Origin: Jimgerdemannia flammicorona
Lineage: Eukaryota
Direction: 5' to 3'
DNA length: 44,040 bases
NCBI GenBank assembly: GCA_003990765.1
Contig: RBNJ01000073.1
Location: forward strand, 1 to 44,040
A program made the position numbers and the translations under genes. The notes under the pieces are model-generated. The model was not told where the DNA came from and made no database searches. It saw only the letters and a program-made list of their open reading frames with translations. This document shows, piece by piece, positions 5,348 through 43,756 of this stretch. Within the stretch, counting starts at the first letter, position 1. Every line of letters starts with the position of its first letter.

Positions 5348-5348
5348 A

Positions 5349-9240: not shown

Positions 9241-9439
9241 TTCAGTTGTAGAAGTTTTTCTTCTATTTGTTCTTCTTTGAGCCAGTTCATTGATACAAGA
9301 GAAGCAATTGTCGATTATTCAGAAAGAGTACATTCCAATGTCATGGGGGCATCAGCTACTGAGTATATATCCATCTTCGATTTTCTTGTAGAATTATTCT
9401 TCTTTATTCATGGTAGGTTGGGCTGGGGCCTTGTTTGAT

Positions 9440-9850: not shown

Positions 9851-9899
9851 GTAGTCAGGTTATTGAGGTGATGCAGAGTAGTAACAGTTGCTCATATAG

Positions 9900-11874: not shown

Positions 11875-13223
11875 TGTAAGAGGGTTTCTTATTAGGGTAA
11901 CTGTTATGTAGTTCTGGAAGGGTTTTCTGGAAGTTCTGGATATTCTGGAAGACTATTTTCTTAAGGTCAAGATCAATTTCTTATGGAGTATATCCTCTAT
12001 GCTTATTGATTTCAAGATTGGATTGATGTTTCAACCAAAGTCCTTTTTTGGACTAGTTCTGGATATTCAGGATTTTCCATATTTCAGGAAGTTCAAGAAA
12101 CTAAGACCAGCTTAGTTGAATTGGCATATTGCTGCAGACAATACTCAATTAGGAAATTTCATGATGGGGTTAGGAGTAGGACCTAATGGGGAGCAGATTT
12201 ACTTAAGAGTAGTTTATAGGTTATTAAATAGGTTTATTTGCTATTTATGATATTACTATACTAGGAGTAGTTGTATGAAGGGATATTGTGGAGAAGTGCT
12301 CAGGAGTTGTGTTTGGATTATTCAAGTCTGAGATTCTGAGGTCTGGGAGAGGGAGTATTTATACTAGTGAGGGGCTATCTGGACTATGCCAAATATGGAT
12401 GTAGTACTTAGTACCTTACTTATATCATAGATATCCTTCATAGTATATTTGACTTGGAGCATTTGCAAGATGTGGTCATCAGGGTGTGAGAAGGTTCTGT
12501 CTGTAGTTTGAATATACTTGATGTACTTGTGGTTGAGTTCTTATATCATATCATTGTTTGGCCATAGAACAGAGTAGTAACCATTTTGGTAGTAGTAACT
12601 CGGAGGCAGGGAATAAATGTGCTATACTCATAGAAGAGTTCTCGATGTTTGTAGGAAATGAGTTTCTGGTGTTAAGATATCTGGGTAATGTCCATGTCAT
12701 AGTAGTGTTTGACCATATCTTCTAGGAGGCAGCTGATCTGATAGTAGCTTGAGATTTGTCTGATTTGATGGACCTAACTAAGTATATTCAGAGTATTCTA
12801 TCAGGCTTCTATGAAGTAGAGGGGTACTAAGCTATGGATATTCATGAGGGACAGAGAGGGTATGGCTCAGTTGACAATAGCATTCTAAATATCAGCATGG
12901 ATACAGTTGTAGATTCAGTGGTCATATTTGTGTGTATGTTCAGGAGTTGGGATTATTTGTTTGGTTTGTTATAGTTCTCTGTTTTGATGTATCTTAGTAC
13001 TCAGTATATATGTATTTGGTTCTGATTGATAAGATTCTGTTTGTATAAATCTTGTATTCAATGACTTTGAGTTGACTCAGCTTTATATACTGTGACTTTA
13101 GTTTGACTCAGCTTCATGATCTTGCAGGTGATTTCCTGATTTGTTCAGAGGTCATGTATGATTTCGGTGGCTTGCTTGAAGAGTGACATGTGATTTCAGT
13201 AGCTTGGGGGTTATGTGCTTATA
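11875..13223 (-). repeat. 5' LTR of element B (1,349 bp; lacks ~0.73 kb present in the 3' LTR)
   Basis: Matches 3270-~3812, then jumps at ~12,419 to match ~4540-5347. Confidence 0.88.
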
Positions 13224-13228
13224 AATAG

Positions 13229-13850
13229 CCTTCTAAATAAGATTTAGATATGGTGAGTTCTGTATAATACTCTTTGATCTTATCAATATACTAGCAATCT
13301 TCCAAATACTGATGAATAATACTTTTTAGGATTATATTAGGGTATTTGTTCCAGTATATCTAGATAATATTCTACTCAGAATGCTCATTGATCACTATGT
13401 TGCTAGTATTTTTTCTCCAAAAATAAGGTCTTGATTGTTGCCAGAAGTCTGTATAACTTAAATGTTACTGGAGAAAGATGATTTCTATTAATTCTACTTA
13501 AGCTACCAATAATAACTAAAGACAAAAAGTTAGACTGCCATATCCAAGGCTTAAAAGGGAATACATGAGTTAAGGTTGAGCTAGAAGAGCCACAGACTCT
13601 TAATGAGACTATGAGATTTACTGATAGGTTTGATGTCCATCACCTTTGGCAATCACTTTGAACCAGAATACTGCAAGAAGAACTACTTTAAGAACTATTA
13701 CAAGAACCAACCCAAAGCAGTTGACCCAGTACCAATATATCTAAATACTATAAATAAGAAAAATAACAAGCTTACCTCTGAAGAGAAAGACTTTCTGTAG
13801 AAATCTGAAGCTTATTTCTTCTATCACCAAACAGAACATATTGTAACTGT
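13229..13850 (+). pseudogene. Heavily decayed gag of an older Ty3/Gypsy element C, into which element B inserted
   Basis: Plus strand KLDCHIQGLKGNT*VKVELEEPQTLNETMRFTDRFD, then PVPIYLN (PVPMDLD-like) and KLTSEE...AYFFYHQTEHI (decayed knuckle). 3115-3264 is probably its other side. Confidence 0.65.
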
Positions 13851-13854
13851 AGGC

Positions 13855-19726: not shown

Positions 19727-22700
19727 ACAAACCCCCAAGACAGCGCTGTGTCAACTACGACATGAACAGGAATTTGGTGGCAGGCAAAAACCCCCTGTTT
19801 GATATGTCGAGGCTTGGGGAAAGATTGCTCCTATATCCTTTCCAACATCAAGGGAACTTTGCAACCGCCATTGGCAACCGAAGACAGCACCGCGAAAAAG
19901 GTAAAAGCGATTCTATTCCCAAGATATGTCTAATTATCCCTTGTACGTTGTTCTCAGTATAATAGTTGTCTCTAAAACTGTGTAGCTTGAAGAAAAACTT
20001 ACCTCTAACTCCCAACCCCCTTTGTTTTATTTTTGCTAGAAATGATAACGTACAAGTCAGCGACTAGTTATACAGATAGCGAAATGCGGCTAGACACTGT
20101 ACCAATGGGCTGAGTTGGCCAAAATATCGAGGTAGTTATAAAGACGCAAAAAAGGGGCATTTTTGCAAACGGGACCCGTGGCGCGTGTAAAGGACAATGG
20201 ATAATCCATGTCACCTACAGCTATGCAATAAACATAAATAGGCAAGAGTCGCTATGAGGTTTTACATCATGCTGGTAACCGATGTAATGGAGATGGCTGC
20301 AAATGTTGGGCTACTCTTCGACGGGGCGGTATGTTGTTTTATTGCTGCTAGGAGGTACCGCGTTTTGGCGCTGCAGAATCATACAGTGTTCCATCCTCGA
20401 CCAATTATACTGACATCCACACTGTCTTCCAACTTTCGCCGTCTATTGCCTAAATGCTAATATCCAGCTGCCCATCACTACTCGGCGTGAAAGAGGCCGT
20501 CACATCTTATTGTTTTTTGGCCCCGAATAAAAACGATTGGGTTCTGTTTCGGCGTAATTCTTAAAATTCTTGGTCTACAAAATGTCATTCCAGCGATCGC
20601 CGGTCGTCAAATGCACGTAAGAAGCGGCTCAAAGGGGTGCGATGAAATATGTTGGGATTTGCAACTCGTTATGGCTTATGTACGTCATCAGTCTACGTCA
20701 TCAGTAATCGCACTGCAATATCAATAAAGTGCCGCTCTCTGTAAAGAACCACCTAATCACGACAGGTTATGAGCCCACCTACAAAAGGCTACGAGCACCG
20801 CCTACAAAATAAGACTCCGCGCATTTCCTCCATTCCAGCCAAACAAAAAAAAAAAAAAAAAAAAAAAAATGCAGCCAACCCGTACCACTGTTTCGACAGC
20901 CTGAATTCCTTGAAGCCAATTTTCGACAATTTTGAGTCGGTCTATTCGAACCAAGTGCCATACATACGTCACATTTATAATCCGGCCACGCGTTCTTGAA
21001 ACTTCCGTCGAATCGAATGGGATCGATTAGTTCGGAGTCTGCTAGCCACACTAGCATCGAAATCAACACTCTAATAAACTTGAACTAGTTATCGAACGTA
21101 ATTCGCCGCGACTCCTTTATTGCTTATCCTTTATTGCTTATAAGGTATCGCCCCATATAGATTACAATAAAAAATAACAATGAAAGGAGAGTCGAAACCC
21201 ATGTGACAATATTCCTGTTCAGTCTACATACACATATTGGCTCCGATCCTCCCGCCCTAGTAACAGTAACCATCCTAATAAAGATCTCAGCCGTGACGCC
21301 CTGCCCCTCTTCCCTCCCCGCCTCCCTTCACCTCACTCCTCTTTTTCTAGCAGCATGGCCATGCCCTACGTTTCATTCCTATCCCGTGACCACTAACTCT
21401 TACCTTCCCGGGCACCCGCTCTTGTTCTTGAAAACGTCTCCATCCTTGAGCGGTGTTTGTGGTGATAGTGAGGTAGGTGTTACGATAGTGATTAGCGACA
21501 GCGGCGGGTCTATTCTCGTCGTGCTGTTGGACTCGGGGCCGTTCGCTACCCCCCTCCCAACCCCACACAATTACCGACCTACACCCTGCTCACTTCCTCC
21601 TACCTCTCTCCACCACGCATGTCCCGCCTGGTCACCTCACCCGCGTGCGTCGAGCCAACAGAGGCGTAAAGCATCCAATTCTTCATGAGGACGTCGTTCA
21701 TAAGCAACGGACAGGATGTACCACTGACGCTGGACGAAGTAAGTTTGGATTGTCGGACTGGCCATGGCTCCGGCGGATGGCGGCGTTGTTCGAGATGGCA
21801 ATTTGTCGACGGTCAACGGTTCTGGGAGAGGGTTGTATTTGGAGAGGTGTGCTCAATCTCCTAAAATCACAAGAGATGCGCGCTCGGCCCCATCCACCTT
21901 TAACTGCTCTCTTCATTTTTCTTCGCCTCTGTCCCTCCCCTCATGTTTCCTCCAAAATAGACACCTACCTACCAATCACTTGCGATCACAACAATATTCT
22001 CCTTCGCATCTGGCTTAAAATCTGGGCAAGCGTAAAGTTGAGTGGAAGCCTGCCAGGGTAACAAACGTGGTTATATGAGAAAAAAAAGGATTGAATAGTT
22101 CAGAGTTTAGGAATTTCGAGTCGAAAACGATGCGCATATCGTTCTTTCCTCCCGCGATCTCCGCCAAAATAAAGGAAACGCATACCTCTGCATCTCTGCT
22201 CCTGTGGGAGTCAAGGCTCCTATGGGGGTCAAGGCTCATCGCGTCCATATTTTCAACAACATAGATCGCAGACCGATTGCATATTGCATCTCCAAAGCCG
22301 AAGAACTAAAGAGGTTCAGAACAGTATACGAGTTCTGTTATTAGTTTTCATCGGGCATGTGTGGGATAAATAGAGAAATAGATGCAAGGACAATTCGTAC
22401 GTGCTTGGTCGGAATGTGGTGGGATTCGTCAGAGTGACGTGTCTTTCGTTTGTTGAGTGGCACGGCACGTTAGGTTGACGCGTCGAATTTAAGGTTGTAT
22501 GGAACGGTGGCGCGAGGCCCTGACAAAAGAAGGTTCACGAACTACGCAAGCTGTGCGAAGCCCTTACGTGGATTACAGCATTGTTAACTAAGGGATGTTT
22601 CATAGGATAACAAAGGCTTATCGGGCTAAAACGGGTGAATTGGTGAATCGACATGAACGCGTAGTCCGTTCGACGAGTTCATTTTCTGGCCTTTTTTTCA

Positions 22701-23197
22701 GACAACCAACATGGGCTCCTAATGGGTCAACCTGGGGTATGACTGACCCGATCCGTCTTTCACAGATTAGGTTAGAGGGTCAACCCAAACCGTAAACCGC
22801 CAAACCTGGAGGTGAGTGCTCTTTCTGGCCGTTAAACACGTTTGAAGAACGTGGGAAGTCTGTGACGGTGCTACATACTAGAGCGTGATCGACCCGGACG
22901 ACCTGGGTTATACCGGTTCAGTAGCATTGTGTGAGATTGGAAAGATGACCTCTCCAAGTGATGGCTAACTGGTCGAGTGGCATTCAACTTGCACGGAAGG
23001 ATGCCAACTACGGCGACTTTGAGACATTGTCTTTTTCAACAATGCGAGGGTAAGGGACCTGTTAATAATGGGACCTAGCCATTTTTTATCTTGTATTTTT
23101 CCCGGGTTAACAAAGAATGTGTAAAAATGTTCTTTTTATTATTATCTTTATTTATTAATTCTATGTTTATGCCGCTCCCCTGCTACAAACTCAAGAA

Positions 23198-23201
<4 letters not shown>

Positions 23202-23244
<43 letters not shown>
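23202..23244. repeat. Poly(A) homopolymer (similar tracts at ~19,694-19,723 and ~20,845-20,869)
   Basis: Directly visible. Confidence 0.9.
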
Positions 23245-23247
<3 letters not shown>

Positions 23248-24005
23248 AATTTCGCTAGAAAATTCTTATGCCTACATACTTCAAACGAAAACCCCTGAGT
23301 GTCCCATTCACTATCGACGATGAAGCGGAACCAAAGCAAGAGACACCAGAGGCAATACATCACCCAGGATCACCCTCGCGTCTACTTTCAAACCTACCAA
23401 AGAACCGAAAATTACATAAAGGCATAAATCATATTGACCCCTATAATTTTCCGTGAAAGAATCACGTTATAATTAAAGGGGCTTGGCTGTCTACACTCCA
23501 CCGAGCTTTGGACCCCCAACGGTCTTGACATTCTGCCTATATATTTTTTTTGTCCTTGCCCTTCCTACGGCCCCGTAACAGAAATATCCCTCCTCCAGCC
23601 CTCCAGGCTCGCCCTCCCAACCTCCCGAAGCCACAACAACGACATTACAAAGAATACTTAATTCGAGTTACTGGGAATATTTGACGAAAGTCGATTCTAG
23701 TTATAACCCTACGAGTAATTCTTTTAACCGTTCCATGCGAAGAAGGCGGCTACTTTCACAGCAGTTTGGCGGACGGCGGGGGTAGCTGACTAAGTGGCTG
23801 AATGGGGCGAAGGGGTGCTGGTTTTGAGTACTCAATAGAATAGCGGACCCAGCAGCGAAAAATTGTTTGTAGAAGGAAACTTATTCAAGTCACTGTGGCT
23901 TGCGTGTCTGACCGGTTCGACCCGAAAAGGACTGACCCGGCGAGTCAATTATGCAACGGCGAATGTTTGTCAAACTGGAGAACACCCCAACATTCACTCA
24001 GAAAA

Positions 24006-27000
24006 ATGCTAATATCCTTGTCAAAGGATCCCCCCAATAGAAACCGCAAAGATAGCAGAGTCCGTGTCAAGGTTTCTGCTGATTACCTGGCTGAGCTCGT
24101 TGAAAGCCATTCCTTCAGCTTTCGGGAAATCCAAGAGGGTCGATTTATCGCCGACGATGTCTTCAATGTAAAACCCAACTCTGCAGATCTCAGAAAATAC
24201 GGCAAAAGGTTGTTCTGGGCCCTCTTTTCGAATAAAGAGACCAGCGCGGCCTGGCGTCTGCTGAAGGTTATATTATCATCTCAATCAAAGGGTCGGATCC
24301 TTCTCGAACTCAACGGCAACCATGACCTCGAAGTCATCCCCTGGGAGTATGCATGGGGCAACAATGCATATCTGACCAGCCAATGCATATTCGTACGCCT
24401 GCAAAATCCGCAGGGGCGTCAGCCATCGAGGCGTCAGCCGCAGGACCTTCAGCCATCGAGACTTCAGGAACTTCCGCTGCGCATCGTCGCCGTCGTACCG
24501 GACCCCCTCATCCCGGCGGGCGATCCTAACGCGAAGCAATTTCCAGATCTACATCTGAGTGATCAGTTTCAAAGATTATGTGATGCGTATAAGAAGAGTA
24601 ATCGACAGATATTACTGGAGCGTGTGTTCCCGCCGACCGTCGAACAAATGTACGAGTTGCTAAGGGGCAAGCGTGACAAGGCTACGGTGCTTCATTTCAT
24701 GGGACACTGTGGCTCGCAGAATGGTGGTGCGAGGGCACTCATCTTTGAAGATCAAGATGCAGGCAGTCTCGACTTTGCTGACGCGCTACGCTTCGACAAA
24801 TCCATGAATCTGAGGCTGGTGTTCCTCTCTGCCTGTAATACTCGCCAAGTCGCCCAAGACTTGGTCAAAAACGGCATTCCATACACCATCGGTTCACACT
24901 GCCCTCTGCCGGATGACCTCGCCCGCAAATTCGAATACAAATTCTACCAGTTGCTGGTCAGTGGCTACACAGTCGAAAAGGCGATGTTGGAAGCGCGCGC
25001 CTCAATGAAAGACCCAAAAGACATCCGGCAACGTAACTACTTCCCGGGTGCCATGGTGCTCTACTCGTCCACGTTTCGGGAAGAGGATGGTGCATTCAAG
25101 TGCGGGGAGGGCAGGCCCACGATCGAAACCCACATGCCCCCCAACAACCTCGAAGTGCTCCCATTCACGCGAATTTTTTGCGGACGCAAGGAGAACCTTA
25201 TCGAGATAACTCGCACTTTGAGGCGTATGGTGGAGAGAGGAACAGAGACCCGTCCCATGTACACCATTGAGGGCATCGCTGGTCAGGGCAAGACGGCGTT
25301 GGCTGAAATGGCTGTCCGGCGGACAGCGCATCTTTTCCCCGGTGGGATATTTGCTTGGCGTTTCGATCCTTCTCGCAAGGTATCGATCATCAAATATCTT
25401 CGGCGTCTGGGAAAGGTTTTATTTCAGGAAGATTTCGGCAACAACTTTTACAAGTTGGAACAGTCTGTCATCAAGAAATTCTTGAGCCATCAGCCGTGTT
25501 TGTTGATCCTCGATCAAGCTGATGTCTTGAAGCGCGCGCAAGATAAAGGAGATGTGGGAGCCGCACATTTGATAAAGTGGCTTCTGAAAATTATGTCGAT
25601 ACGCGGGATTGTAGTTAAATATTTTGCAACATCACAACAACCTCTCAATTGGACAACGGAGGAGAATCCTATGGTTCTCAACGGTTTAACAGATTTGGAT
25701 ATTGGTAGCGGCGTCGAGTTGTTCATTCGAAATCTTGATGCTCAAGTAAGGAAGAGGATGGAGAAAGAGGACAATACCAAGCAGTTGCTGCACGATCTCG
25801 TCAGGTTCGTAGACGGACATCCACTGTGTTTGGAATCCCTTGGCCATGCCGTCGGCTTATCACAACATAGCAATGCATCACTTGAGGAACTCGTTCATGA
25901 CCATTTCGATAAAATGCTAGTGAAGGGCTCACATGGAAGTAGAAACCTCAAAACTCGTTTCCAACCAACCATCGACGCGCTTCCAACACGGCAGCGCCTG
26001 CTACTCTATATGTGTTCTCTCTTCACCGGACCAATAACAGAAGGAGTGCTCGCGTTCTTACATTATTTTGTCAAATACACTTCGTCGTCGGAAGGGGTTG
26101 ATTATAGTAATGAGAACCTGCAACAATTATGTGATAGCCAGTTATTGTGGAAAAGAGAAGTGGAATACAAGATTCATGTCGCTCTTAAGGAAGGTGTGAG
26201 ACAGTGTAATTCTGTGATGAAACTGCAACTATGTATGCCGATACTCGGCGAATATGGTGACACGTTTGTAATTGGCATTGCCAAAGCATCTAAGCATGGT
26301 GAGTAATGCAAATGAAATGTGAATATTTGAATCTATTTCGTTCACGATTTCAACTATCTTTTAATTTTCACAACAGGAATTTCTATGGTGCGCGAATGGC
26401 AACTCCGAAGTATCCAAGAACACGCCCACAGTGAAGTGAAGCACAAGACTTATGGCGTACAATATTATGACATTGTCGACATTCCTGGTGCCAGCAGCCA
26501 CAAAATAATAAGGGACGGCGTGGAGCAGCAATTGTTATTTGGTGGATTGGTAGTGTTCAGACGTACAGCATCCGAAAATCTTCAAGTTAGTTTTCCTAGG
26601 TTCTGCATGGAGAACATCATACCGATTGTGACAGAAACGAAATCGCCGTTCATTCTGTGTTTGCATCATGCCGACACGGAGCCCGGCAAACGACCTACCA
26701 CAAATGCCGCAAGGAATATAGTTCTGATGAAGAAAACCATGGAGATTTTGCAATCTGCTCTGGAGATGACGCACTTTATAATTATGACGGAACCTCCTCT
26801 GGGTGAGTTGTAGTCTCTTCCATTCGTGAGCAACAATTGTGAGAAACAATTCAGATTCAAAATAACATCGTCGAACTACTTTTTTGAATGCACGAACTGA
26901 TAGACATTATCCGCGGAAAAGGATGTTTGCCAAGTGAGCGGAAATTTTGGTATAGTAATGTGAAAAGGATGAACTAATAGAAAGCGCTCGCTGACAAAGA

Positions 27001-30000
27001 TGCTTCCCATTCATCAAACCAAAGGCGTCAGTGAGAGCCAACCGCCAATGGAGGTAGATTTTGGCAACGTCCACACATGTGGAAATTTTGTTGGACGTCA
27101 GCAAGAACTCCAGAAATTGGAAGAACTACTGAGTGACAAAGAAATTCGCTATATCACCATTCGCGGTTTTGGCGGGATGGGCAAAACGGCATTGGCAATT
27201 CACGCAGTCAAAAACTTCAAAGCTGGCAGAGTTCTGGTGATATCCCTCGTTGGAAACCCAAGTTCAGATGCAGTAATCTCAACAATCGCCGGACTTCTCA
27301 ACATCGACATCGAAACGTCTCGAAATCCAGGGCTTCGACAAAATTTAGTCACGGCTAAGTTATCTAGTGGAGGGAAAATGCTATTTTATCTTGACCATAT
27401 GGATGATGTCAAGCATGCAACTAAACACGAAGACCCAGCGACGAAAGAGGATGCAATAGCTTTGATGAGGTTTTTCCACCATATACCGAGCAACATTAAG
27501 GTTCTTGCAACATCAAGAATCGCGCTTGGTTGGCCCAATGAAAAGGCTATCGAGTTGGAAGGTTTAGCGCCAGATGATGGCATACAAGTCTTTCGACAAT
27601 GGGCTCCCGAACGTTTGGATGACATCGACAATGAGCATGCAAAGAAAATTAGTCATCTTGCAGGCGGTCATCCATTATCTATTCGTCTTCTCGGACGTGC
27701 CTTCAACAAGGACAAAGAGTCTGTCGATCAATTCATCAAGAACTTTCGCAAAAGGCTACAGAATGCAAAAGATACTCTTGAGGAACGTCACAATTCGCTC
27801 AAGACCTGCATCCAATCTAGCTTTGATTACCTAGATGAAAATCTAAAAATGTTGCTTGACCAGTTAAGACTATTTGAGGTTGCATTCTCGGCGACGCTAG
27901 TGCAGAAGGTTTTGGATCGTAGCACTGCATCGTCATTGGCATCGTCTGCAGCGAGCAATTTGCATACACTTTGGCAACAGAGCTGGCTGAACGAACTCAA
28001 GTATGATTCAAGGTTCGGTGACTGGCGTCCCAGGTTTATGGAGAAAGATACAACGTTTTACACCCTACACCCTCAATTGCGCGAGTTCCTCAATCACCAG
28101 TCTAGCCATGCCGAACATTCCGTTACTGACATGTGGTATGATTCGGAGATACAGTTCTATACTGCCTTATGTTACGGCGTTGGTTGCGGCGTTGCAAATG
28201 ATCTAGTGAAACAGATTGAGTGGTGCACTAAAGCTGCGACGAATGGACATTTAGAGGCGCAGCTAACCGTTGCTGCTTGTTACGAGGAAGGAGGAGGAGG
28301 CGTAGACGTAGATAAGAAGGCGGCGTTTGAATGGTACTTGAAAGCTGCAGAAGCTGGCGACAAAGGAGCACAAGAAAAGGTTGCAAATTGTTATTTAATG
28401 GGAAATGGTGTCGAGAATAGCATCGAACAATGTCATCATTGGCACAAACTTTACGAGGAAAACAAGAACGATTCACTGTCGATCAAGTTTGATCTTTCTC
28501 TTCCGCTGTTACATCGCGCAGCTGAAGGTGGTCATGTGGCATTGATCAGATCATTGCTCAATCAACCCAACGCCAACGTCGAATTGAAGGACAGGCATGG
28601 TCGGACCCCACTGCACCTAGCTGTCGAGAAAGGTCACATCGACGTGTTCAAGCTACTCGTGTTGGAATTCAATGCAAACCCCAATGCAGAGGACAAGAAA
28701 GGTAACACGCTAGTGCACCGTGCCGCAGAAAACGGACATGTCGAATTCATAGTCATACTCATGGACGCGTTTGGGGCGGACGCTAACGCCAAGAACATCG
28801 ACGGATGGACGCCGTTGCACCTGGCTGCGAAGGGAGGGTACGTCGAAGTCGTGAGGTTGCTGGTGACCGAGTTCGAGGCGTTTGTCAAAGTTAGCAACAA
28901 CGAGAGATTTATACCGATCCGTTATGCCGCGGTTAATGGGCACGTCGAGGTCGTGAAATTGCTTCTAGTCGAGTTTCAAATGCTAGATTTCGGAGGTATG
29001 CCAGAATTATGTGAAGCATTGTATGAAGGCCATGGAGTCAAGCCCACGATCTGCTGTGCGTGTTTGCTCACCCACCTTCTATTCATGTTTAGGGTACCGC
29101 ATAGGCAACGATGGGGCACGTGCCATAGCCGAGTCTCTGAAGCAGAACTTGACCTTGGCCACGCTGAATCTCGGAAGTATGTCAGAACTGTGTGAAGCAT
29201 TGTGCAGTCGCACGACGAAATCAAGCTCACGATCTGTGCGTGTTTGTTCAATCCCTTGTTCATGTTCAGGGAACAGCATCGGCCACGAGGGGGCACGTGC
29301 ATTAGCTAAGTCAATGAAGCACAACGCGACCTTGACCACGCTGAATCTTGAAAGTATATCGGAAATGTTTGAAGCATTGTGTGCAACCGCGCGATGGTTT
29401 CAAGCTCACGATCTGTGTGCGTTCGCTCATTTATCCTCCTTTCATGTTCAGTGAATGGCATCGGCGACGAGGGGGCACGAGCCATAGCCGAGTCTCTGAC
29501 GCAGAACACCACCTTGACCATGCTGAATCTCGGAGGTATGTCGGAACTATGTGAAGCATTGTGTGCGGCAGCGCGATGGAATCGAGCCCACGATCTGGGC
29601 GTTTCCGCTCATCCCCTGTTCATCTTAAAGGGAATTACGTTGGCCACGAAGGGGCCCGTGCACTAGCTGAGTCTCTGAAGCAGAACGCGACCTTGACCGG
29701 GCTAAATCTCGGAGGTATGTCGGACCCTGGTGAAGCATTGTGTGCAGCAGGTCGATGGAATGAAACTTACGATCTGTGCGTGTTCGCTCATTCATCCCCT
29801 GTTCATGTTTAGTGAATAGCATTGGTGACATGGGGGCACGCGCCCTAGCCGAGTCTCTGGAGCGTAACGCGACTTTGACCACGCTGAATCTCGGAGGTAT
29901 GTCGGAACTGTGTGAAGCATTGTTTGCAGCTGCGCGATGGAATGAAGCTCACGCTCTATGAGGATTCGCTCATCGATCCCCTGTTCATGTTCAGTGAACA

Positions 30001-32579
30001 GCATCTGCGACGAGGGGGCACGAGCCCTAGCTGAGTCTCTGAAACAGAACACGACCTTGATCACGATAAGTCTCCGAGGTACGTAGGAAATGCGTGAAGA
30101 ATTGTGTGCAACTGCTAAATGGAATCAAGTTCATGGCCTAAGCGTGTTCACCCATCTATCCCCTGTTCATGTTCAGACAACAGGATCGGCCAAGAGGGGG
30201 CACGCGCCCTAGGGGAGTCTCTGAAGCAGAACACAACTTTGTCTACGCTGAATCTCGAATGTATGTCGGAACTGTGTGAAGCATTGTTTGAAGATGTGCG
30301 ACGAAATCAAGCTCGGTTCTGAGGGTGTTTGTTGATCCCATTTTCAGGGAATTGCATCGGCCACGAGGGGGGACGCGCTCTTGCCGATCCTCTGAAACAG
30401 AATACGAGCTTGACCACGCTGAATCTCGAAAGTATGTCGACACTATGTGAAGCATTGTATGCAGCTGCGCGACGGCTTCAAACTCATGATCTGTGCGTGT
30501 TCGCCCATTTATCCTCTGTTCATGTTCAGGGAACGGCATCGGTCACGAGGAGGCACGCGCCCTAGCCACGTCTCTGAAGCAGAACACAACCTTGATCACG
30601 CTGAATCTCGAAAGTAATTCGGAACCGTTTGAAGCTTTGTATGCAGCTGCGCAATGGTTTAAAGTTCACATTCTGTGCGTAATCGTCCATTTTGTACAGT
30701 GAACAGCATCGGCGACGAGGGGGCACGTGCCCTAGCCGAATCTCTGAAGCAGAACACGACTTTGGCTACGCTGAATCTCAAATGTATGTTGACGCATTGT
30801 GTGCAGCTGCTTGCTACAATCGAGCTCACGATCTGTGCGTGTTCGCTCATCCATCTCATATTCATGTTCAGTTAACAGCATCGGCGACGAGGCGGCACGC
30901 GCACTAGCTGAGTCTCTGAAGCTGAACGCAACCTTGTCTATGCTGAATCTCGAATGTATGTCGGAACTGTCTAAAGCATTATATGTAGCTGTGCGATGGA
31001 AACGAACTCAGGATATGTGTGTATTTCCTCATCCATTCCCTGTCCTTGTTCAGGGAACAACATCGGCCACGAGGGGGCACGCGCCCTAGCAGAGTCTCTG
31101 AAGCAGAACACGACCCTGACCACGCTGAATCTCTACAGTATGTCCGAACTGTGTGAAGCCTTTTACGCAGTTGTGCGATCGTTTCAAGCTCACTATCTGT
31201 GCGTGTTCGCTCATTTATTCCCTGTCCTTGTTTAGGGAACAGCATCTGTCACCAAGGGGCACACGCCCTAGCCGAGTCTCTGAAGCAGAACACGATCTTG
31301 ACCATGCTGAATCTGGAAAGTATGTCGGCACCATTTAAAGAATTGTGTGCAGCTGCGCGATGATTTCAAGCTCACTTTCTGAGGGTGTTCGCTCATATTT
31401 ATCCTGTTCATGCTCAGGGAACAGCATCGGCCACGAGGGGGCACGCGCCCTAGCCGAGGCTCTGAAGCAGAACACGACCTTGACCATGCTGAATCTCCAA
31501 AGTATGTCGGGACTGTTTGAAGCATTGTGTGCAGTTACCCGATGGTTTGATATGTGGGTGTTCGCTCATTTATCCCATCTTCATGTTCAGTGAACAACAT
31601 CGGCGACGTGGGGGCAAGCGCCCTAGCTGAGTCTCTGAAGCATAACATAACTTTGTCTATGCTGAATCTCGAATGTATGTCAGGACTGTGTAAAACATTG
31701 TTTGCAGCTGCGCGATGGAATCCAACTCAGGATCTGTGCGTGTTTTCTCATCTATCCCCTGTTCATTTTCAGGGAACAGCATCGGCCACAAGGGGGCACG
31801 CGCCCTAGCCGAGTCTCTGAAGCAGAACAAAACCTTATCTATGCTGAATCTCGAATGTATGTCGGAACTGTGTCAAGCATTGTTCGCAGCTGCGCAATAG
31901 AATCAAGCTCAAATCTGTACATATGGTTCACCCATCACCTGTTCATGTTCAGGGAACAGCATCGGCCACGAGGGGGCACGCGCCCTGGCCGAGTCTCTGG
32001 AGCAGAACATGGCCTTGACCACGCTGAATCTCTACAGTATGTCGAATCTGTATAAGCATTTTGTGCAGCTGCGCGATGGTTTCAAGCTCGTGAACTGTTT
32101 GTGTTCTTCATTTATCCCCTGTTCATCTTCAGAGAACGGGATCGGCGACGATGGGGCACGTGCCCTTGCCATGTCTCTGAATCAGAACAGGACCTTGACC
32201 ACGCTGAATCTCGAAAGTATGTCGGAACTGCTTGAAGGATTGTGTGCAGCTATGCGGTGTTTTCGAGCTCGCGATCTGTGCTTGTTCGTTCATTTACCCC
32301 TCCTCATGTTCAGTGAACAGCATCGACGACAGGGGAGCATTCGCCCTAGCCGAGTCTCTGAAGAAAAACACGACTTTGGCTACGCTGAAACTCAAATGTA
32401 TTTCGGAACTATGTGACGCATTGTGGCAACTACTCGATAGAACCTAGCTCACGATCTGTGCATATTCGCTCATCAATCTCTATTCATATTAAGGTAACAT
32501 CTTCGGCGACGAAGGGGCACGCGCCCTAGCCAAGTCTTTGAAGCATAACACGACCTTGACGCTATATTATATGATGTAA
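24006..32579 (+). CDS. Multi-exon NLR-like protein (~2,130 aa): CHAT protease, NB-ARC/STAND, spacer, NB-ARC/STAND, Sel1 x3, ankyrin x5, LRR x20
   Basis: Exons join in one frame through phase-1 GT-AG introns: 24,006(or acceptor at 24,027)-26,298; 26,377-26,802; 26,904-26,933 (mini-exon, less certain); 27,025-28,995; then LRR exons starting at 29,093, 29,270, 29,452, 29,631, 29,813, 29,995, 30,177, 30,348, 30,530, 30,700, 30,872, 31,054, 31,236, 31,418, 31,591, 31,773, 31,953, 32,133, 32,314 (84 nt each) and 32,494-32,579 (TAA). True start uncertain; upstream exons possible near 23,268 and 23,582. Confidence 0.85.
24200..25070 (+). other. CHAT (caspase/separase-like, clan CD) protease domain
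   Basis: LEVIPWEY, VLHFMGHC (His at 24,705-24,707), LIFED, LVFLSACNT (Cys at 24,834-24,836), FEYKFYQLLVSGYTVEKAMLEAR. Confidence 0.88.
25170..26200 (+). other. First NB-ARC-like STAND NTPase domain
   Basis: FCGRKE; Walker A GIAGQGKTALA; Walker B LLILDQAD; FATSQ; GHPLCL (GxP); YKIHVALKE (MHD-like). Confidence 0.85.
27085..28095 (+). other. Second NB-ARC-like STAND NTPase domain
   Basis: FVGRQQEL; Walker A GFGGMGKTALA; Walker B LFYLDHMD; VLATSR; LEGLAPDDG; GGHPLSIRLLG; YTLHPQLREF. Confidence 0.9.
28140..28460 (+). other. Three Sel1-like repeats
   Basis: AQLTVAACYEEGGGGVDVDKKAAFEWYLKAAEAGD plus two flanking similar units. Confidence 0.85.
28500..28979 (+). other. Five ankyrin repeats
   Basis: GRTPLHLAVEKGHIDVFKLL, GWTPLHLAAKGGYVEVVRLL and similar units. 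Confidence 0.92.
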
Positions 32580-32690
32580 ACGACGATGGTATGGTATATC
32601 AGACAGTGTGAAAAATTTTGTGGAGCTGCGCGATAGTATTGGGCTGACGATCTGTGCGTGTTCGCCCATCATCCATTCATTTTCAGATGG
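28996..32690 (+). repeat. Tandem array of ~180-bp intron+exon units, each encoding one 28-aa RI/NLRC3-type LRR
   Basis: Unit = GTATGTCGGAACTGTGTGAAGCATTG...GTTCGCTCAT...TTCATGTTCAG intron (~87-98 nt) plus an 84-nt exon xNSIGHEGARALAESLKQNTTLTTLNLx; 20 exons and 21 intron copies. Confidence 0.95.
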
Positions 32691-33328
32691 TAACAGCAGC
32701 TGCACTACATAATCGGGAGATTTATTCTTATGTAATCTTGCTTCTATAGCTCTGTGTGTTTCAACAGTGATTCAATTTTGACTCTGCTAGAATTGTTTTG
32801 AGGTTTCAATAAGAGAGAATTGTGGCCATATTCAAGTTCACTTAGGATTACATATTGGGAGAGAATAGCAATCTGATAGCCAAGAGTTAATCATTATTGG
32901 TATTCTTCAGAAATATCAACTTTCAATGCTATAAACAGTACTCACTATTGGATGTTTGTAGCAAATTTGAAAAGTCAGATAGGTAGTAAAATGTTTGATA
33001 AATTGATGCTTAATGAAAAACTGATCAAATGAATGATATATTTGAAGATGGGACAAGCATAATAACCAGCCAAATTTGAGGCATTTTTTTAAAAAAAATC
33101 CCAGGATTTTGGGCTTGAGAGCTTCACATGCCAAATGCACCGGCATAAAATTTTGAGAATACCGGGTTGTGTGAGAGAGGTATGCAAAAACAAAGTGGTA
33201 GCAATGCCAGCTCCTGCGGCGCGACCAAACGGCCGTAATCTCGCGGTGTCCTGCTAGCACCACCATCCCCTGCCCAGCTTCGTGCAAGCTCGTGGGCGCC
33301 CTTTCCGCGCCGCAACCCGGGTGTTTCC

Positions 33329-33999
33329 AACGCCAAGAAAACTGATGGATGGACACCGCTTCACGCAGCTGCGAAAAACGGCCACGTCGAGTTTGTGAAA
33401 TTGCTCATTGCCGACTCTAAGGAGGACACCGACCTCAAGACCGACATATTATGGACGTGGCTGCGCAGAACGGGCACATCGATATTGTGAGGTTGCTCTT
33501 GGCCGACTCCAAGGCCAACGCCAAGGACAAGGACGGATGGACGGCGCTTCGCTGGGCAACGACCGAGGGGCACGTCGGAATTGCGAAAATGCTCTTAGCC
33601 GACACCAAGTGGGACGCCAACGCCAAGACGAAGGACAGAAGGGCGCCGCTTCACCTCGCTGCGCAGAACGGGCACGTCGATATTGTGCGGTTGCTCTTGG
33701 CAGACACCAATGCGGTTGCCAACGCCAAAACCAACGAAGGGCAGAAACCGTTGCAGCTGACAATTGAACGGCCGATCCACTCCGGAATTCGATGCGGTGG
33801 ATGTAAGCTGTACCCAATCACTGGAGAACGATATAAGTGCACGACCTGTGAAGACTATGATTTTTGCAGTTCATGCTCTATCAAGGAAACTGGTATTCAT
33901 AATAACCATGAGTTTTGCCTTTTTGAATTGACTAAGGCCACTGTGGAGGCTTTGGAAGATTTACAGATGGTGAAATCGCTTTATCTATTTGAGTTGTGA
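33329..33999 (+). pseudogene. Ankyrin repeats plus ZZ-type zinc finger; 5'-truncated, frameshifted fragment (a 182-aa ORF remains from 33,451)
   Basis: NAKKTDGWTPLHAAAKNGHVEFVKLL starts mid-repeat at 33,329; frameshift at ~33,445; three more ANK repeats; then HSGIRCGGC..PITGERYKCTTCEDYDFCSSC...HNNHEF. Confidence 0.75.
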
Positions 34000-34899
34000 G
34001 ACTGCCTGGTTTGGTTTGATGATTACCCTTTAGCTTGTGAAGGGGCTGAAAGGGGGTTTCTATTGTAAGTTTGGGTGTTGCATGGAGGTGAGAGAATTAG
34101 GAAGAGAGGCAAAGGTGCCTGACAATGCCAGTAACATTCAATGGATGGGTGTGGTAATATCATTACCACTCTCTTGCTGTATTATTTCCTTTGCTCAGAT
34201 GAACATACAATATATATAATATTGGAGAAAAATAAATTTACGAAATAACAATAATGGAAATGTGAAAACGAACCCAGACAACGAAAAACTATATGGTAAC
34301 GTTCATCAATTGACCTTGGCCAAGGCCACTTTGAATCGCAAACGGAGCACCATGCCAGCGACGCAACTCATATCCAGCAAGTTCCATCAGAGTTCGATTT
34401 AGATTTCTGTATTCTGCTTGAAAACGGCATCGATTTAAGCTCCGATTTGCCCTTCAATTTTCCTTCTGAAGCGCCTCTTGACACACACTTCGACTTCAAC
34501 AATTATTAATACTTGAATTTCTAAGGAATCTCCGCGGTTTCCATATGTCGTGCACAGCAGCTCGTGCGCAGCAAGATTTCGTTCCTCGTTGCAATGGGAG
34601 CGGACGACGATCAAAGTAAGGCAAAAATGCGCTAGATAAAGGGCATATCCCAACTTTTGCACTCCGTTGCGTCTCAAATTTTGCATCCACGCCTTGGCGA
34701 CCTATAATTTTATCCATGTTAGACTAATTGCACGTTCTTGTTCTCATCCAGTGCCACCTGCAACCCCACGACCCGTCCGCCAAACTCAGGCCGTTTTGCA
34801 GGCTTCCGCAAATCGTGCCATTAATATCCCAATTTCTTATGTTTTCCAAACCCATCTACTAGGCCTGGATACCGAGCTTGGTGCCCTGTTCACCCTAAG

Positions 34900-35276
34900 T
34901 CCTAAGAATCGCCATGAGCCGTGTAATATCCTCGTCATGGACGTCCGCGAGCCCCAGCTCGTCCTGCAACATCGCCATGTTTATGTTTAGCTCGACGATC
35001 TCCGCGTCACGCGCCTTGAAAACAAATTCAACATCGGCGAGCGATCGCGCCAGTTGGCGTTCTCGCTACTCCAGCATGACCTCTTCACTCGTTAAAAATC
35101 GTACTGTGCCGTCCTCAGCTTGAGCTTCAGAATGTCCGCCGAGACTCTGCCTCCTCCCGAGCCATGCTCGCCAAGTGCTGTTCTTCGGCCTGCCCCCGCC
35201 GCTGCCTGTCGTAATTAAACTCGGCCACGAGCAATTTCACGACGGACCGTTATGCGCATTGGTGTCCATCCACTGG
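34900..35276 (-). pseudogene. Gene relic: broken ankyrin repeat followed by a coiled-coil-like frame
   Basis: Minus strand SGWTPMR..NG..VVKLLVAEF (35,217-35,276, with small deletions), then EEVMLE*RERQLARSLADVEFVFKARDAEIVELNINMAMLQDEL. Confidence 0.4.
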
Positions 35277-35359
35277 ATTTCATATAGTTATGAGCGTAGT
35301 TCAAACTTCAGTAAAGTGGCCGAAGCCGCTTAGCTCGCGGAACGTTCATGCGCACTCCT

Positions 35360-38300
35360 TTAGCTTAGTTCTGTTTCAATCGCATTCCTGCGGTCCTGCG
35401 GTTTAGTTCCTGCGTTTTCTGCCGTTTTAGTTCCAGCATTTCTGCAGTTTTAGTTCCTGCATTCCTGCGTTTCAATCGTTCCCTGCAATCCAGCTTAGTT
35501 TAGCTCGGACTCAGTTAATGTACACCAGTCTCAGCATGCATTGCAGTTCATTGTCATTTTCTTTACCATCCATTCTTGTCGTTTTCCTTGCTGTCCTTTC
35601 TAGCACATAGTCATTCGATATTTAGCAATTAGTCAATAGTAATTGTTTGTTAGTAATTTCGTATCTTCAAGTTTGCATACACATATATACCAATACACAT
35701 TATGCCACCTCTCTGTCAGTTGCAAGGTCTACTATTGTCAGCCCCCACTCCAGCCCCCGCTCCAGCCCCTGCTTTCAGTCCACCTCAAGGGCATCTTCCA
35801 ATCTCTATCTTGTCTAGTTTCTGTGCATTACATAAGGAACAGTTAATTACTCTGTATTGCAACTATAAGATACCAATAGATGACAACAAAGCCAATTTGG
35901 TTATGTATCTCAATATGTATTGTTCAGCTCCAGAACTCATATCTCAGGCAGAACAGTCAGCTGATGATGACCTTATAGAATGCTTTCTTTCTGTCCTTGC
36001 TATATGTCTCACAGGAGCCCCTTCCTTGCTATCACACATTTTGGCAGACCCCAGTATAGTGATCACATCAGTAGTATGTATCAAGCACAAACTGGTCAAT
36101 AGTATTATTGAGCAGTTTGTCACATCCAGTTCTATCTCAATTACCTGCTTTTCTCCCATTGCTCTCTGGGTTTCCACCTATCTCTGCTTTACTCTAGTTT
36201 TACACAGACCTCTACTTTACTTCTATTACTTACTGATTTTGTATCAATCTCACATTATATACTAAATAGTGAGTTCTCTTCTATTGTTTCTGATGCTATA
36301 CTATAATATATTTGTATACCACCCAATTTACTTATTTCTCTAGATATTAGTAAATATCAGATTTTAGCTAAGTGGATAGAAAATGTCTCTATCTCATATT
36401 TATATTGCAAAAAATCAGATACTTATCTGCTAGATAATGATCTTTAATTTATTGCTATAGCTAGTAACTATTTTTAACATCTGTAGTACTCTACTATTAT
36501 TAAGTATCATCTGGTCTACTATTCATACTTCATATGCTCCTTAACTTCTCATTTATATATACATACTATCTTTATTATAAAGATAATTAATAATCAGTAT
36601 AATTGAGCAATACTATAGTACTTCAACTATTAGGTTTATATACAAAGGCATTCATTTCAGACGTCAACATCAGTATAGTGCATTACTATTATAGATCAAC
36701 CATTATCTATACTACTAGTATATCAATCTGTTTATCATACTAATCTTTCTAGACTATAGGTAGTTTGAGATCTACAACTTGTAACTTTCTGTATTTTATA
36801 TATTTTATAGAAGTATATAGCTATATCCTGCACTTAAACAGTACTCCACCATCTGTCATTCTCAATAAAGCCAGAGGATTCCCTTTTATCCAACAGTGCT
36901 ACTAGTATAGTTTATCAAAACTATAATAGTATTAGCTGTTACAGTGATTGCAGTTAGATACATATTTGCATATTCTGTTATAGTCTCTACTCTGATATAT
37001 TATGAACTACTTCATATAGCTAATCTTACAATACTACATTTATCTACTCACCTATTGATATATATTATATAATTTTAATAAGTAGTAATGTACTCTTAGA
37101 GAGACTTTTGAAGAAGTGGGTGAGCCTGTTGGAGAATGAGAATATAGAGGATCAGAGGGTTCAATATTCTCAGCTAGAGATAGAAGAGCTGTAATACATT
37201 TAGCAGGCTAAGGAGGGTGTGCAAGTATAAAGTATAGTGGTCAGGCTATAGTGGCAGAGCCTAGAGAAAAAGAAAAGACTGATGAGTTTCTGTTGAGACT
37301 TCTATTAATAAGGAGAGTATATCAGCACTGAGATAGTATATTAGATAAGGAGAGTGAGCTGGTGGTGAGAACTTAGAATATTTTGAGACAGCTGAGTAAG
37401 TAGTAGAGATTACTACAGAGTGAAGAAGAGAGAGGTAAAGAGATATAGACTATTGAGTGATACTTGGAAGACTAGTATCCAGACCCAACAAAGAGGCTTA
37501 AAGATATCCTCAATCTCTTTCTCAGCTATCACTCAGATTATTCAACAAATTCTTAGCTCATTTTTGTAGATTTCTGGAGAAAAGTAATAGTAATATATTA
37601 TTAACTCTGAGCTTATTAAAGTATACTAAGCAAGGTAGCACTAATATATATGACTGATAGTATATATGTAGGAAGAGGATTGTAATATAGATATAAGTCT
37701 CTTGGACTCCTATGAGGGTAGAGACAGAGTTAGGAGAAGTGAGAGATCTTAAGAGAGAGTAACAGTATTAGAAAGAATGAGCTTTACTGACAAGGTTCAG
37801 GCAGACAGTATGTCAGTAGAGCTGGATAGTTGACTGCTGACAGAGATAGAGAAGACATCTAGTGAGAGGTCTAGAGAGATGGCCCAGATTGATAGAGATG
37901 ATAGAACTAGTGAAGTAACAGCTAGTAGAGAGGGGGAAACTACTGATAAAAGTATAATTATCACTCTGAAAAAAGATACAGATATAATAACTAATAGAAG
38001 AACTAAGTCAATAGGTGGTACAAGGTTGGGTAATCTGGTAGATAGTGCAACAGACCTGGTAGCAGTACTATGTATTACTTAAGAAATCAGTATTAGAATT
38101 TATAGTCATATTGTACTTCAGGGGTTTGATAGTTATGGTTAAATTAGTTCTAAGGCTACTGGTCCAATAGATGAAAGAGACAGCTTTAGTGAAGTTTCTA
38201 TATAGACTGAAGAGAGTGGAAGTGGGCTTTGAGGAGAAGATATTATAGAATACTTAGAGAAAGACAGATAGAGAGAAGTATTATTTATTAATACTAGTTT

Positions 38301-38843: not shown

Positions 38844-40043
38844 TGTTTAGTGGAAAAGGGCAGCAAATAACTTGGCGGCGACGGTCTTGATGGTCTTGCT
38901 CTTTAGGCAGTCAATTAAAGCAGTCTGTAGCACAGTAGGTCGGGGAAAACAGAGGTTGATGGCTCGCTCATCCATCTTGGTTAACTTGAAAGGTTCCTGG
39001 CAGTCATTCGGGTCTTTGGCAGCAGTCTTGTATCCTTTGGCTGGGTAACTTGGGTTCCTTGGGTTCTTTAGCTGTGTTGCCGGGGTCTTGAATCTCGAAT
39101 GGCAGTCTCGAATGGTGGCGGTCGGGTAACATTTTCTTTCTTTCTGTAGCAAGAGAAATTCTTTAACTCAAACCTCGAGTGATCCATTGCTCTAGTTATT
39201 TTGTTCTCAGAATTCCGTTCTCTTGGAGGCAGTGTGTTTTCTCTATAAAACTGTCTGACTGAGGCTTTATTCACTCTAAGATATAGGGTTATTTATACAA
39301 ATTTGCTAGCTATGGGGGGGGCTAAGGTATACTATGTTGTGGCAAACTTCGCTATGCTATTGGCTTGCATGATGTGAAGGGCTGACTTGCTGACATAGAC
39401 AGATATGGATATGATGATTGTTGCCAGGAACAGTTGTGCTGGGTAGCAATGCTGGATTCAGACTTGCTGACAAAATGCTGAAAATGGTGGCACTGGATAG
39501 CAATGCTGGATTTGGACTTGCTGACAAAATGCTGAAAATGGTGGTACTGGATAGCAATGCTGGGAATGGTTGTACTGGGTAGCAATGCTGGATTCGGACT
39601 TGCTGACAAAACGCTGAAAACGGTGGCACTGGATAGCAACGCTGGAAACAGTTGTGCTGGGTAGCAATGCTGGATTCGGACTTGCTGACAAAACACTGAA
39701 AATGGTGGCACTGGATAGCAACGCTGGAAATGGTTGTGCTGGGTAGCAATGCTGGATTCGGACTTGCTGACAAAATGCTGAAAACGGTGGCACTGGATAG
39801 CAATGCTGGAAATGGTTGTGCTGGGTAGCAATAGCTGGATTCAGACTTGCTGACAAAATGCTGAAAATGGTGGCACTGGATAGCAATGCTGGAAACAGTT
39901 GTGCTGGGTAGCAATGCTGGATTTGGACTTGCTGACAAAATGCTGAAAACGGTGGCACTGGATAGCAATGCTGGAAATGGTTGTGCTGGGTAGCAATGCT
40001 GGATTCAGACTTGCTGACAAAACGCTGACATGAAGGCTACACA
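38844..40043 (-). repeat. Probable 3' LTR of element D (~1.2 kb)
   Basis: TGTTTAG...CTACACA imperfect terminal inverted repeat; shares the TATA block gggttatttatacaa.tttgctagctat...ggctaag (~39,286-39,326) with the family A LTR (~2844-2885); adjacent PPT is weak. Confidence 0.55.
39425..40030. repeat. 82-bp minisatellite (~7 copies) inside LTR D
   Basis: Unit starts at 39,569, 39,651, 39,733, 39,815, 39,898 and 39,980. Confidence 0.92.
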
Positions 40044-42567: not shown

Positions 42568-43756
42568 AGGGGGGGCAAGATGGGCAAAACGACACAGGCA
42601 AGATGGGCAAGATGGGCAACATGGGTAACATGGGCAACATGGGCAAGACGGGCAAGACGGGCAAGATGACAAGATGGGCGACATGGGCAAGATGGGCAAA
42701 ACCGGCAAAACGACACAGGCAAGACAGGCAAGACAGGCAAGATGGGCAAGACGGGCAAGATGGGCAAGACGGGCAAGATGGGCAAAATGGGCAAAATGGG
42801 CAAGATGGACAACACGGGCAAGATGGCAAGATGGGTGACATGGGCAAGATGGGCGACATGGGCAAGATGGGCAAAACGGGCAAAACGACATGGGCAAGAC
42901 CGGCAAAACGGGCAAGATGGGCAATACGAGCAAGATGGCAAGACAGGAGACATGGATAAGACAGGCAAAACGGGCAAAACGACAGGGCAAGACTGGCAAA
43001 GTGGGCAAGATGGGCAACATGGGCAAGACAAGATGGGTGACATGGGCAAGACGGGCAAAATGGGCAAAACGACAGGCAAGATGGGCAAGACAGGCAAGAT
43101 GGGTGAGACGGGCAAGACGGGCAAGACGGGCAAGATGGGTAACACGGGCAAGATGGGCAAGACAGGCAAGACGGCAAGACGGGTGACATGGGCAAGATGG
43201 GCAAAACGGGCAAAATGACACGGGCAAGATGGGCAAAACGGGCAAAATGGGCAAGACGGGCAAAATGGGCAAGACGGGCAAAACGGGCAAAACGAGCAAG
43301 ACGGGCATAATGGGCAAGACAGGCATAATGGGCAAAACGGGCAAGATGGGCAACACGGGCAAGATGGCAAGATGGGCAACATGGGTAAGATGGGCAAAAC
43401 GGGCAAAACGACATGGGCAAGACCGGCAAAACAGGCAAGATGGGCAATGTGGGCAAGACAAGATGGGCGACATGGGCAAGACGGGCAAAATGGGCAAAAT
43501 GACAGGCAAGATGGGCAAGACAGGCAAGACAGGTAAGGCGGGTAACACGGGCATGACAGGCAAGATGGGCAAGACGGCAAGTCAGGCGACATGGGCAAGA
43601 TGGGCAAAATGGGCAAAATGACACGGGCAAGACACGGGTAACACGGCAAGACAGGCAAGACGGCAAGACGGGCGACATGGGCAAGACGGGCAAAATGGGA
43701 AAAATGACATGGGCAACCGGGCAACTGGGCAAGACGGGCAAGATGGGCAAGATGGG
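42568..43756. repeat. ~1.2-kb degenerate 9-bp satellite, GGGCAA(G/A)A(T/C), with higher-order structure
   Basis: Directly visible; lies where integrase D is truncated. Confidence 0.95.

Follow-up and report, generated by a model that had tools for sequence, protein, structure and literature searches.

An Ankyrin-to-LRR Junction in a Putative Fungal NLR-Like Receptor Gene and the Ankyrin-ZZ Fragment Behind It

Introduction

Contig RBNJ01000073.1 of Jimgerdemannia flammicorona (assembly GCA_003990765.1) was analysed over positions 1 to 44,040 of its forward strand, called the window below. Its DNA is eukaryotic, and the introns in it are short. It carries a putative NOD-like receptor (NLR) gene in which an array of ankyrin repeats passes directly into an array of leucine-rich repeats (LRRs), and behind this gene lies a second ankyrin block that ends in a ZZ zinc finger (the ANK-ZZ tail). 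How did the LRRs come to follow the ankyrins, and is the tail the end that they displaced? A first-pass annotation had proposed that the ancestor ended in ankyrins and a ZZ finger, and that an LRR array with its own stop codon and 3' region was inserted and replaced this C-terminus. Our analysis points to a different explanation, which we judge to have an even chance of being right: the graft would be an old trait of the receptor family, and the tail would be a fragment, truncated at its 5' end and dead since recently, that comes from another ANK-ZZ gene.

Results and Discussion

The LRR Array Begins inside the Ankyrin Exon

The putative receptor gene consists of one long exon and the repeat array that follows it. 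Its features are:

26973-28979 (open reading frame (ORF) 26973-28995), plus strand: long NLR-like exon, ending in ...VKLLLVEFQ before the LRR-like 16 nt (Pfam and translation)
~27099-27827, plus strand: NB-ARC domain (PF00931, E 3.3e-10)
~28254-28361, plus strand: best Sel1 repeat (Pfam Sel1, E 2.8e-14)
~28497-28979, plus strand: five ankyrin repeats (Pfam Ank_2, E 6.4e-46)
28980-28995, plus strand: final 16 nt of the long exon, a copy of an LRR exon end, coding for MLDFG and the first base of a split codon
28996-32493, plus strand: tandem exon-intron array in which 19 LRR exons (84 nt, one repeat each) are interspersed with 20 introns (86-98 nt)
32494-32579, plus strand: terminal LRR exon, in which the usual 'LNL' end is swapped for LYYMM and TAA at 32577-32579 (sequence letters and unit-consensus alignment)
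32598-32715, plus strand: relic of an extra unit past the stop, intron-like to ~32686 and then like the start of an LRR exon (consensus alignment, repeat family D3)

The NB-ARC domain scored 40.1 bits against a cut-off of 23.5 over residues 43-285, and the translation contains the P-loop motif GFGGMGKT. The C-terminal superstructure-forming repeats are Sel1, five ankyrins and 20 LRRs. An ATPase with a P-loop followed by C-terminal repeats is what characterizes NB-ARC-class STAND (NLR-like) receptors, and the predicted protein has both parts.

The fifth ankyrin of the receptor exon ends with ...HVEVVKLLLVEFQ. The next 16 nt, 28980-28995, are ATGCTAGATTTCGGAG and are followed by GT. The end of LRR exon 3 (29452-29535) is ATGCTGAATCTCGGAG, also followed by GT, and 14 of the 16 nt are identical. 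The phase-1 donor GT stands at 28996, directly after the long exon. Using the consensus of 19 LRR units, we found no likeness to it upstream of ~28980 and a clear likeness from there across the whole first intron. Intron 1 has a mean identity of 73% to the other 19 introns, which is far beyond chance (the array mean is 75%). It is thus the last part of the ankyrin exon that codes for the first LRR strand (MLDFG-G). Since the LRR homology starts 16 nt before the splice donor and not at the intron, the junction indicates that a break of the DNA within an exon once joined the LRR sensor to the ankyrin array. Thus, three observations of the first-pass annotation are borne out: the fifth ankyrin stops at VKLLLVEFQ, the next 16 nt match the 3' end of an LRR exon, and the junction lies within a chimeric exon. 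When the breakpoints were inspected, neither target-site-like nor terminal repeats were detected around the LRR block or the tail.

Run X1 was the sole sequencing run listed, with no RNA run beside it. It shares 0.10 of words, was matched at 90% likeness, and consists mostly of short contigs of related genes. One contig (record 7) is exact over 28791-28993 and then diverges from the window DNA. Other X1 contigs run from the ends of LRR exons into the starts of LRR exons across 3-30 intervening letters. These contigs are hints of splicing at most. A joint of 28954 to 33494, suggested by two X1 contigs with 20 letters on the shorter side, was rejected as a cross-match of other ankyrin genes.

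The LRR Array Was Apparently Once Longer

Tandem Repeats Finder reported a single array at 28996-32560 with a period of 182 and 19.9 copies. The LRR exons start at 29093, 29270, 29452, 29631, 29813, 29995, 30177, 30348, 30530 and 30700 (exons 1-10), and at 30872, 31054, 31236, 31418, 31591, 31773, 31953, 32133 and 32314 (exons 11-19). All 19 are open, flanked by AG...GT and in the 182-nt register; the twentieth 84-nt candidate (29667-29750) was dropped, as it overlaps exon 4 with its intron and is out of register. Each exon holds 28 codons with ...TL.TLNL..., and all introns of the array are of phase 1. The mean likeness within the array is 79% for exons and 75% for introns, and there is no edge effect. 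After a graft inside an exon, such a one-repeat exon cassette could multiply in frame.

When the LRR repeats were compared with the Protein Data Bank (PDB), they matched the ribonuclease-inhibitor-like protein 9y6s (E 7e-10) and NOD2 (5irl, E 0.003). Judged by this likeness, the repeats are of the ribonuclease-inhibitor type. The best Pfam LRR_6 score was 21.5 bits, below the cut-off of 23.4, and was obtained on frames read through introns rather than on the spliced protein.

The array has its own stop codon, as had been predicted. This codon lies within a 27-nt stretch that took the place of the normal exon end. An intron-like stretch and an exon-like start survive behind the stop, which indicates that the array was once longer; it is presumably shortened by a local change.

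Two Relatives Seem to Share the Graft Point

A search with the receptor exon yielded 110 relatives at E<=0.001. The five closest (P0001-P0005, from assembled public runs) are 45-50% identical to it over 93-99% of the query. In two of them, the ankyrin ORF comes to an end like that of the receptor: P0002 ends in …KELDLKGLLEMHEFT and P0004 in …KTELNLKGMLEIS. Their protein ends are ...KELDLKG-LLEMHEFT and ...KTELNLKG-MLEIS, respectively, and the receptor, when read into the intron, gives ...VEFQMLDFGG-MPELCEAL. The motif 'L-D/N-L-x-G' straight after the last ankyrin helix, with a stop within 5-8 codons, is how an ORF caller would see an LRR strand and a G|GT donor. The ORF ends of the other three relatives differ from that of the receptor.

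In tblastn against the receptor exon, P0002 is 46.5% and P0004 47.9% identical. Since the same type of junction occurs in two genes that are only 47-48% identical, the graft would predate the divergence of these genes. Judging from the two ORF ends, it seems to be old, an inherited trait of the family and not an event of the present locus. That two distant relatives seemingly have the graft point in common also argues for a single origin. The graft point then shows how this fungal receptor family may have acquired its LRRs.

The Tail Is a Truncated and Frameshifted Ankyrin-ZZ Sequence

The stop codon of the LRR gene and the start of the tail are ~0.74 kb apart. This region contains:

32716-33189, no strand: A+T-rich spacer, GC 0.26-0.40 (composition)
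33190-33319, no strand: G+C-rich block of ~130 nt, GC ~0.65, directly before the tail (composition)
33320-33454, plus strand: first frame of the tail, which reads GVS-NAKKTDGWTPLHAAAKNGHVEFVKLLIADSKEDTDLKTD and then enters tail repeat 2 (Pfam Ank, E 1e-9)
33455-33774, plus strand: second frame of the tail, running from within repeat 2 through repeats 3 and 4 to a capping half-repeat (Pfam, alignment A1)
33775-33999, plus strand: ZZ zinc finger, then ~30 residues and TGA at 33997-33999 (Pfam ZZ, HERC2 and p62 structures)

The spacer shows no likeness to anything else in the window. In the G+C-rich block we detected no likeness to ankyrin or any other protein, and codon periodicity, tested over 33239-33319, is absent.

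The ankyrin sequence restarts at GVS-NAKKTDGWTPLH (33320/33329), and 33329 is 4349 nt past 28980. No single reading frame covers the tail: 33329-33454 lies in one frame and 33455-33996 in another. Alignment A1 shows that a 10-nt deletion at 33454|33455 in tail repeat 2 removes the conserved TPLH codons and shifts the frame. The start-to-start spacing of the tail repeats is 92 nt at this gap, 96 nt between repeats 2 and 3, and 102 nt between repeats 3 and 4. The ZZ finger (PF00569, E 2.2e-10) scored 40.6 bits against a cut-off of 21.4. All eight zinc ligands of the pattern CxxC...CxxC...CxxC...HxxH are present, as CGGC, CTTC, CSSC and HNNH in the translation, and in the PDB the finger matches HERC2 (6ww3, E 6.6e-13) and p62 (E 1.8e-9). 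The first-pass annotation was right that ankyrin sequence resumes about 4.35 kb later, that it is frameshifted there (by the single gap in the second tail repeat), and that it ends in a ZZ finger.

Neither frame segment contains a stop codon. The G+C content at third codon positions (GC3) is 0.79 in the ankyrin part of the tail, compared with 0.34 in the spacer. Upstream of 33320, there is no in-frame ATG and no ankyrin likeness in any frame. Read in this way, the tail is a 5'-truncated, frameshifted but otherwise clean putative fragment. The loss of its 5' part and the frameshift are the lesions by which a pseudogene fragment is recognized.

The tail may still be used, either as a small gene from the ATG at 33451 (182 residues, ankyrins and ZZ) or as an alternative last exon. 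The frame 33451-33996 is open, with the high GC3 in its ankyrin part and a complete ZZ finger, and the AG at 33420-33421 is phase-compatible with a phase-1 donor, although any given phase is fitted by one in three AGs through chance. With such a use, however, the first tail repeat would not be read in frame, and repeat 2 would still lack its conserved TPLH. The second tail frame is closed upstream by TAA at 33418-33420, and neither the AG at 33276-33277 nor that at 33287-33288 is compatible with phase 1 for the first tail frame. We consider a tail still in use very unlikely.

The Tail Differs in Subtype from the Neighbouring Array

To which gene did the tail belong? All four tail linkers are of the form L[LI]AD[ST][KN], the receptor linkers are xEF or xAF, and those of P0001-P0005 are mostly xEF, xEL or xKF. 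None of the 259 proteins compared has two or more linkers of the tail type. In tblastn, the tail ankyrins are 36.9-39.4% identical to those of the neighbouring receptor; they are 49.1% identical to P0001 over 106 residues and 49.0% identical to P0189 over 100 residues. Thus, the tail ankyrins look like generic NLR-type ankyrins of another subtype, unlike the neighbouring array.

We also looked for proteins that combine both domains of the tail. None of the 110 receptor relatives lists PF00569 or fits the ZZ pattern. In a search of representatives with 33631-33996 as the query, we examined the best 150 matches, below which 44,322 lower ones at E<=0.001 remained. The best 150 are ankyrin-rich or multi-ZZ proteins that score by the number of their repeats, and none of them contains the ankyrin and ZZ patterns together. 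A Pfam scan of 34 among these 150 (21 best for ZZ and 13 best for ankyrin) did not reveal any protein with both domains. A word-based search of 5.8 billion proteins with the ZZ finger and C-terminus (tail-frame residues 100-192) gave 17 candidates at protein lengths of 337-2000 and 3 candidates at lengths of 105-336, none of them significant. In the ESM Atlas, only generic ankyrin, MIB-type and MYND clusters matched, giving no lead. From metagenome contigs, 204 pattern matches led to two loci, L001 and L002, which were rejected: the ZZ finger alone matches there at 46-50%, and these are zinc-finger genes without an ankyrin ORF. Relatives with contiguous ANK-ZZ and no LRR, by which the proposal of an inserted LRR array could be checked, were thus sought in vain, and no relative in the collections searched joins the two ankyrin blocks.

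In the first of the competing explanations, which is that of the first-pass annotation, the ancestor would have been ANK(n)-ZZ, the block 28980-33319 (LRR array, stop and 3' flank) would have been inserted in an ankyrin linker, and the tail would be the displaced C-terminus. The left breakpoint lies inside an exon, as an insertion at the level of DNA would give, and the tail ankyrins are like NLR-type arrays, including that of the family member P0001. The shared strand, the order and the matching repeat register of the two ankyrin blocks also speak for this explanation. However, the junction is common to two relatives at 47-48% identity; a tail orphaned before their divergence should no longer be recognizable, but this one shows a single lesion. 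The tail repeats belong to another subtype, and it is the neighbouring array that they resemble least. The absence of ZZ from all 110 receptor relatives also counts against the displaced end, and the 130-nt G+C-rich block between the A+T-rich spacer and the tail would require a separate explanation. On balance, an ancestor that ended in ANK(n)-ZZ and had its C-terminus replaced by an LRR insertion is not supported. We regard a displaced end as unlikely, and less likely than a stray fragment. Should the tail nevertheless be that end, the locus would have kept both breakpoints of a sensor swap and would be a rare fossil of such an event. The incoming LRR array would have severed, in exact repeat register, an ANK-ZZ end that may have read protein N-termini, the family would have ANK-ZZ members in the past or at present, and the tail would have been under selection until recently. 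This chain of events, too, is improbable in our view.

The second competing explanation is that the tail is the remnant of an NLR paralogue of a tandem cluster that ended in ANK-ZZ, and that its front was lost when the present gene duplicated or moved in. This would be a recent rearrangement between paralogues, distinct from the original graft. The best matches of the tail ankyrins are STAND/NLR-type proteins (P0189, P0001, P0155, P0149, P0153 and P0214), and NLR-like proteins with C-terminal ZZ arrays do exist (Death-NACHT-ZZ: P0116 and P0180). On the other hand, tblastn with 13 queries over the window found no relic of NB-ARC, Sel1 or another NLR part beside the tail, nor any outside 23800-34000, and none of the searches yielded an ANK-ZZ NLR. 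We consider the paralogue remnant rather improbable.

The explanation that we prefer combines an old graft with a stray fragment. The LRR sensor would have been grafted long ago onto the ankyrin array, and the receptor gene part would have been inherited in the family and kept intact. The tail would be a piece of a different gene, which ended in ankyrins of the other subtype and a HERC2/p62-type ZZ finger. This fragment would have died recently, by one 10-nt deletion, amid relics of retrotransposons and repeats. Its youth as a relic is suggested by the single 10-nt gap, the absence of stop codons, the eight retained ZZ ligands and the GC3 of 0.79. Both this youth and the separateness of the parent gene are our inference, and the parent could itself be an NLR-type gene.

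Several observations speak against this preferred explanation. The tail lies on the same strand as the receptor gene and directly behind it. The receptor array stops after LLLVEFQ and the tail begins with GVSNAK, which is the very next repeat position (compare LLLADTN-AVANAK within the tail). The positions of the two breakpoints within the ankyrin repeat agree to 0-3 codons, so that the first-pass annotation was correct in describing the sequence as resuming almost in register, and excision of 28980-33319 would leave an open, in-register frame. The chance of such a register was estimated at ~1 in 5 to 10. That the graft is old is read from the protein ORF ends of two relatives, P0002 and P0004. 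A parent or relative of the tail was not found in the collections searched, so that its origin from another gene is itself putative. Moreover, these collections contained no close paralogue from this genome (the best match was 50% identical), which makes the negative results for ANK-ZZ relatives weak.

Comparison with Known Receptors and ZZ Proteins

Fungal NOD-like receptors combine NB-ARC or NACHT with ANK, TPR or WD repeats (PMC4986451), and the gene described here resembles them in having NB-ARC and then ankyrins. Unlike the NLRs covered by that survey, it adds an LRR array of the ribonuclease-inhibitor type, with one repeat per exon, after Sel1 and the ankyrins. According to the survey (Dyrka et al. 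2014, PMC4986451), LRR motifs were not detected among fungal NLRs, which makes a gain of LRRs in this family notable. The survey also describes domain reshuffling among close fungal NLR paralogues as frequent (Table 2, N-terminal domains). In a later survey (PMC12258605), LRR profiles are part of the definition, and fungal NB-ARC-LRR proteins are not reported in the portion that we had. The literature searched, supplements aside and with some sources available in part, yielded no fungal NLR with LRR or ZZ sensors.

The array also resembles animal NOD/NLRC-type genes in its whole-repeat LRR exons and phase-1 introns, which permit in-frame gain and loss of exons, and in its match to NOD2. It differs from them in having NB-ARC and not NACHT, in its 28-residue exons, and in the fusion of the first LRR strand to the ankyrin exon. 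The LRR exons of the animal genes are reportedly modular, as Hoss et al. are said to have described in 2019.

The tail ZZ finger, as predicted from its sequence, aligns over its full length with those of HERC2 and p62/SQSTM1 (PDB 6ww3, 6ww4 and 6miu) and has all their zinc ligands; unlike in HERC2 and p62, it is C-terminal, behind ankyrin repeats. Histone H3, SUMO1 or Arg-Glu peptides are named alongside the ZZ domains in the titles of these PDB entries. In the Death-NACHT-ZZ(n) proteins P0116 and P0180, NLR-like ATPases carry ZZ fingers as C-terminal repeats, so ZZ can serve in this position. Unlike the tail, these two proteins have 6-10 ZZ copies, a NACHT ATPase and no ankyrins, and their high scores are due only to the many ZZ copies.

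The tail also resembles the unprocessed pseudogene fragments of transposon-rich regions: it is 5'-truncated, has a frameshifting deletion and no start codon, and is flanked by transposon relics. Compared with typical fragments of this kind, it is unusually well kept and stands in repeat register with the preceding gene. Even as a relic, it points to an unknown type of gene, in which ankyrin repeats would end in a HERC2/p62-like ZZ finger.

Neighbouring Sequences

The other features of the window are:

23844-26306, plus strand: ORF in which Pfam finds a CHAT protease domain (E 2.4e-18) together with a P-loop ATPase
215-16436, minus strand: decayed Gypsy-type frames with gag zinc knuckle, protease and reverse transcriptase (named from reading the translations)
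39474-40028: 82-nt tandem repeat, 6.8 copies, 92% matches, adjoining retrotransposon integrase-like frames
42597-43756: 9-nt microsatellite-like array of GGCAAGATG, ~130 copies, adjoining retrotransposon integrase-like frames
35207-35290, minus strand: single, badly decayed ankyrin repeat whose linker, VVKLLVAEF, is of the receptor-family kind (inverted repeats I1, I2 and I7, translation)

The ORF at 23844-26306 lies upstream of the receptor exon on the same strand and is a candidate source of an N-terminal effector. It is 44.5% identical to P0155 over 742 residues. P0155 runs on into its own ankyrin array, whereas this ORF ends without repeats just before the second ATPase module. Perhaps the sensor of the CHAT module was lost, or else this module makes use of the sensor that lies downstream. 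An X1 contig of 283 nt (record 4, one mismatch) matches 26376-26574 only, and its other 84 nt are absent from the DNA upstream, a hint of a splice acceptor near 26376 by which the CHAT ORF would be joined to the middle ORF at 26331-26813. Pfam searches with 26331-26813, 21161-21688, 35657-36265 and one LRR exon peptide gave no match, nor did an Rfam scan of 20000-36000 at the gathering threshold.

Decayed Gypsy-type retrotransposon frames occupy 0.2-16.4 kb and 40-44 kb, that is, both sides of the receptor gene with its tail. Among the frames of the minus strand at 215-16436 there are also stretches that we take to be dUTPase-like. The single decayed ankyrin repeat at 35207-35290 lies 1.2 kb beyond the tail, and its tblastn support is weaker than E 1e-3. 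It is adjoined on the same minus strand by an open, coiled-coil-like stretch at ~34830-35100.

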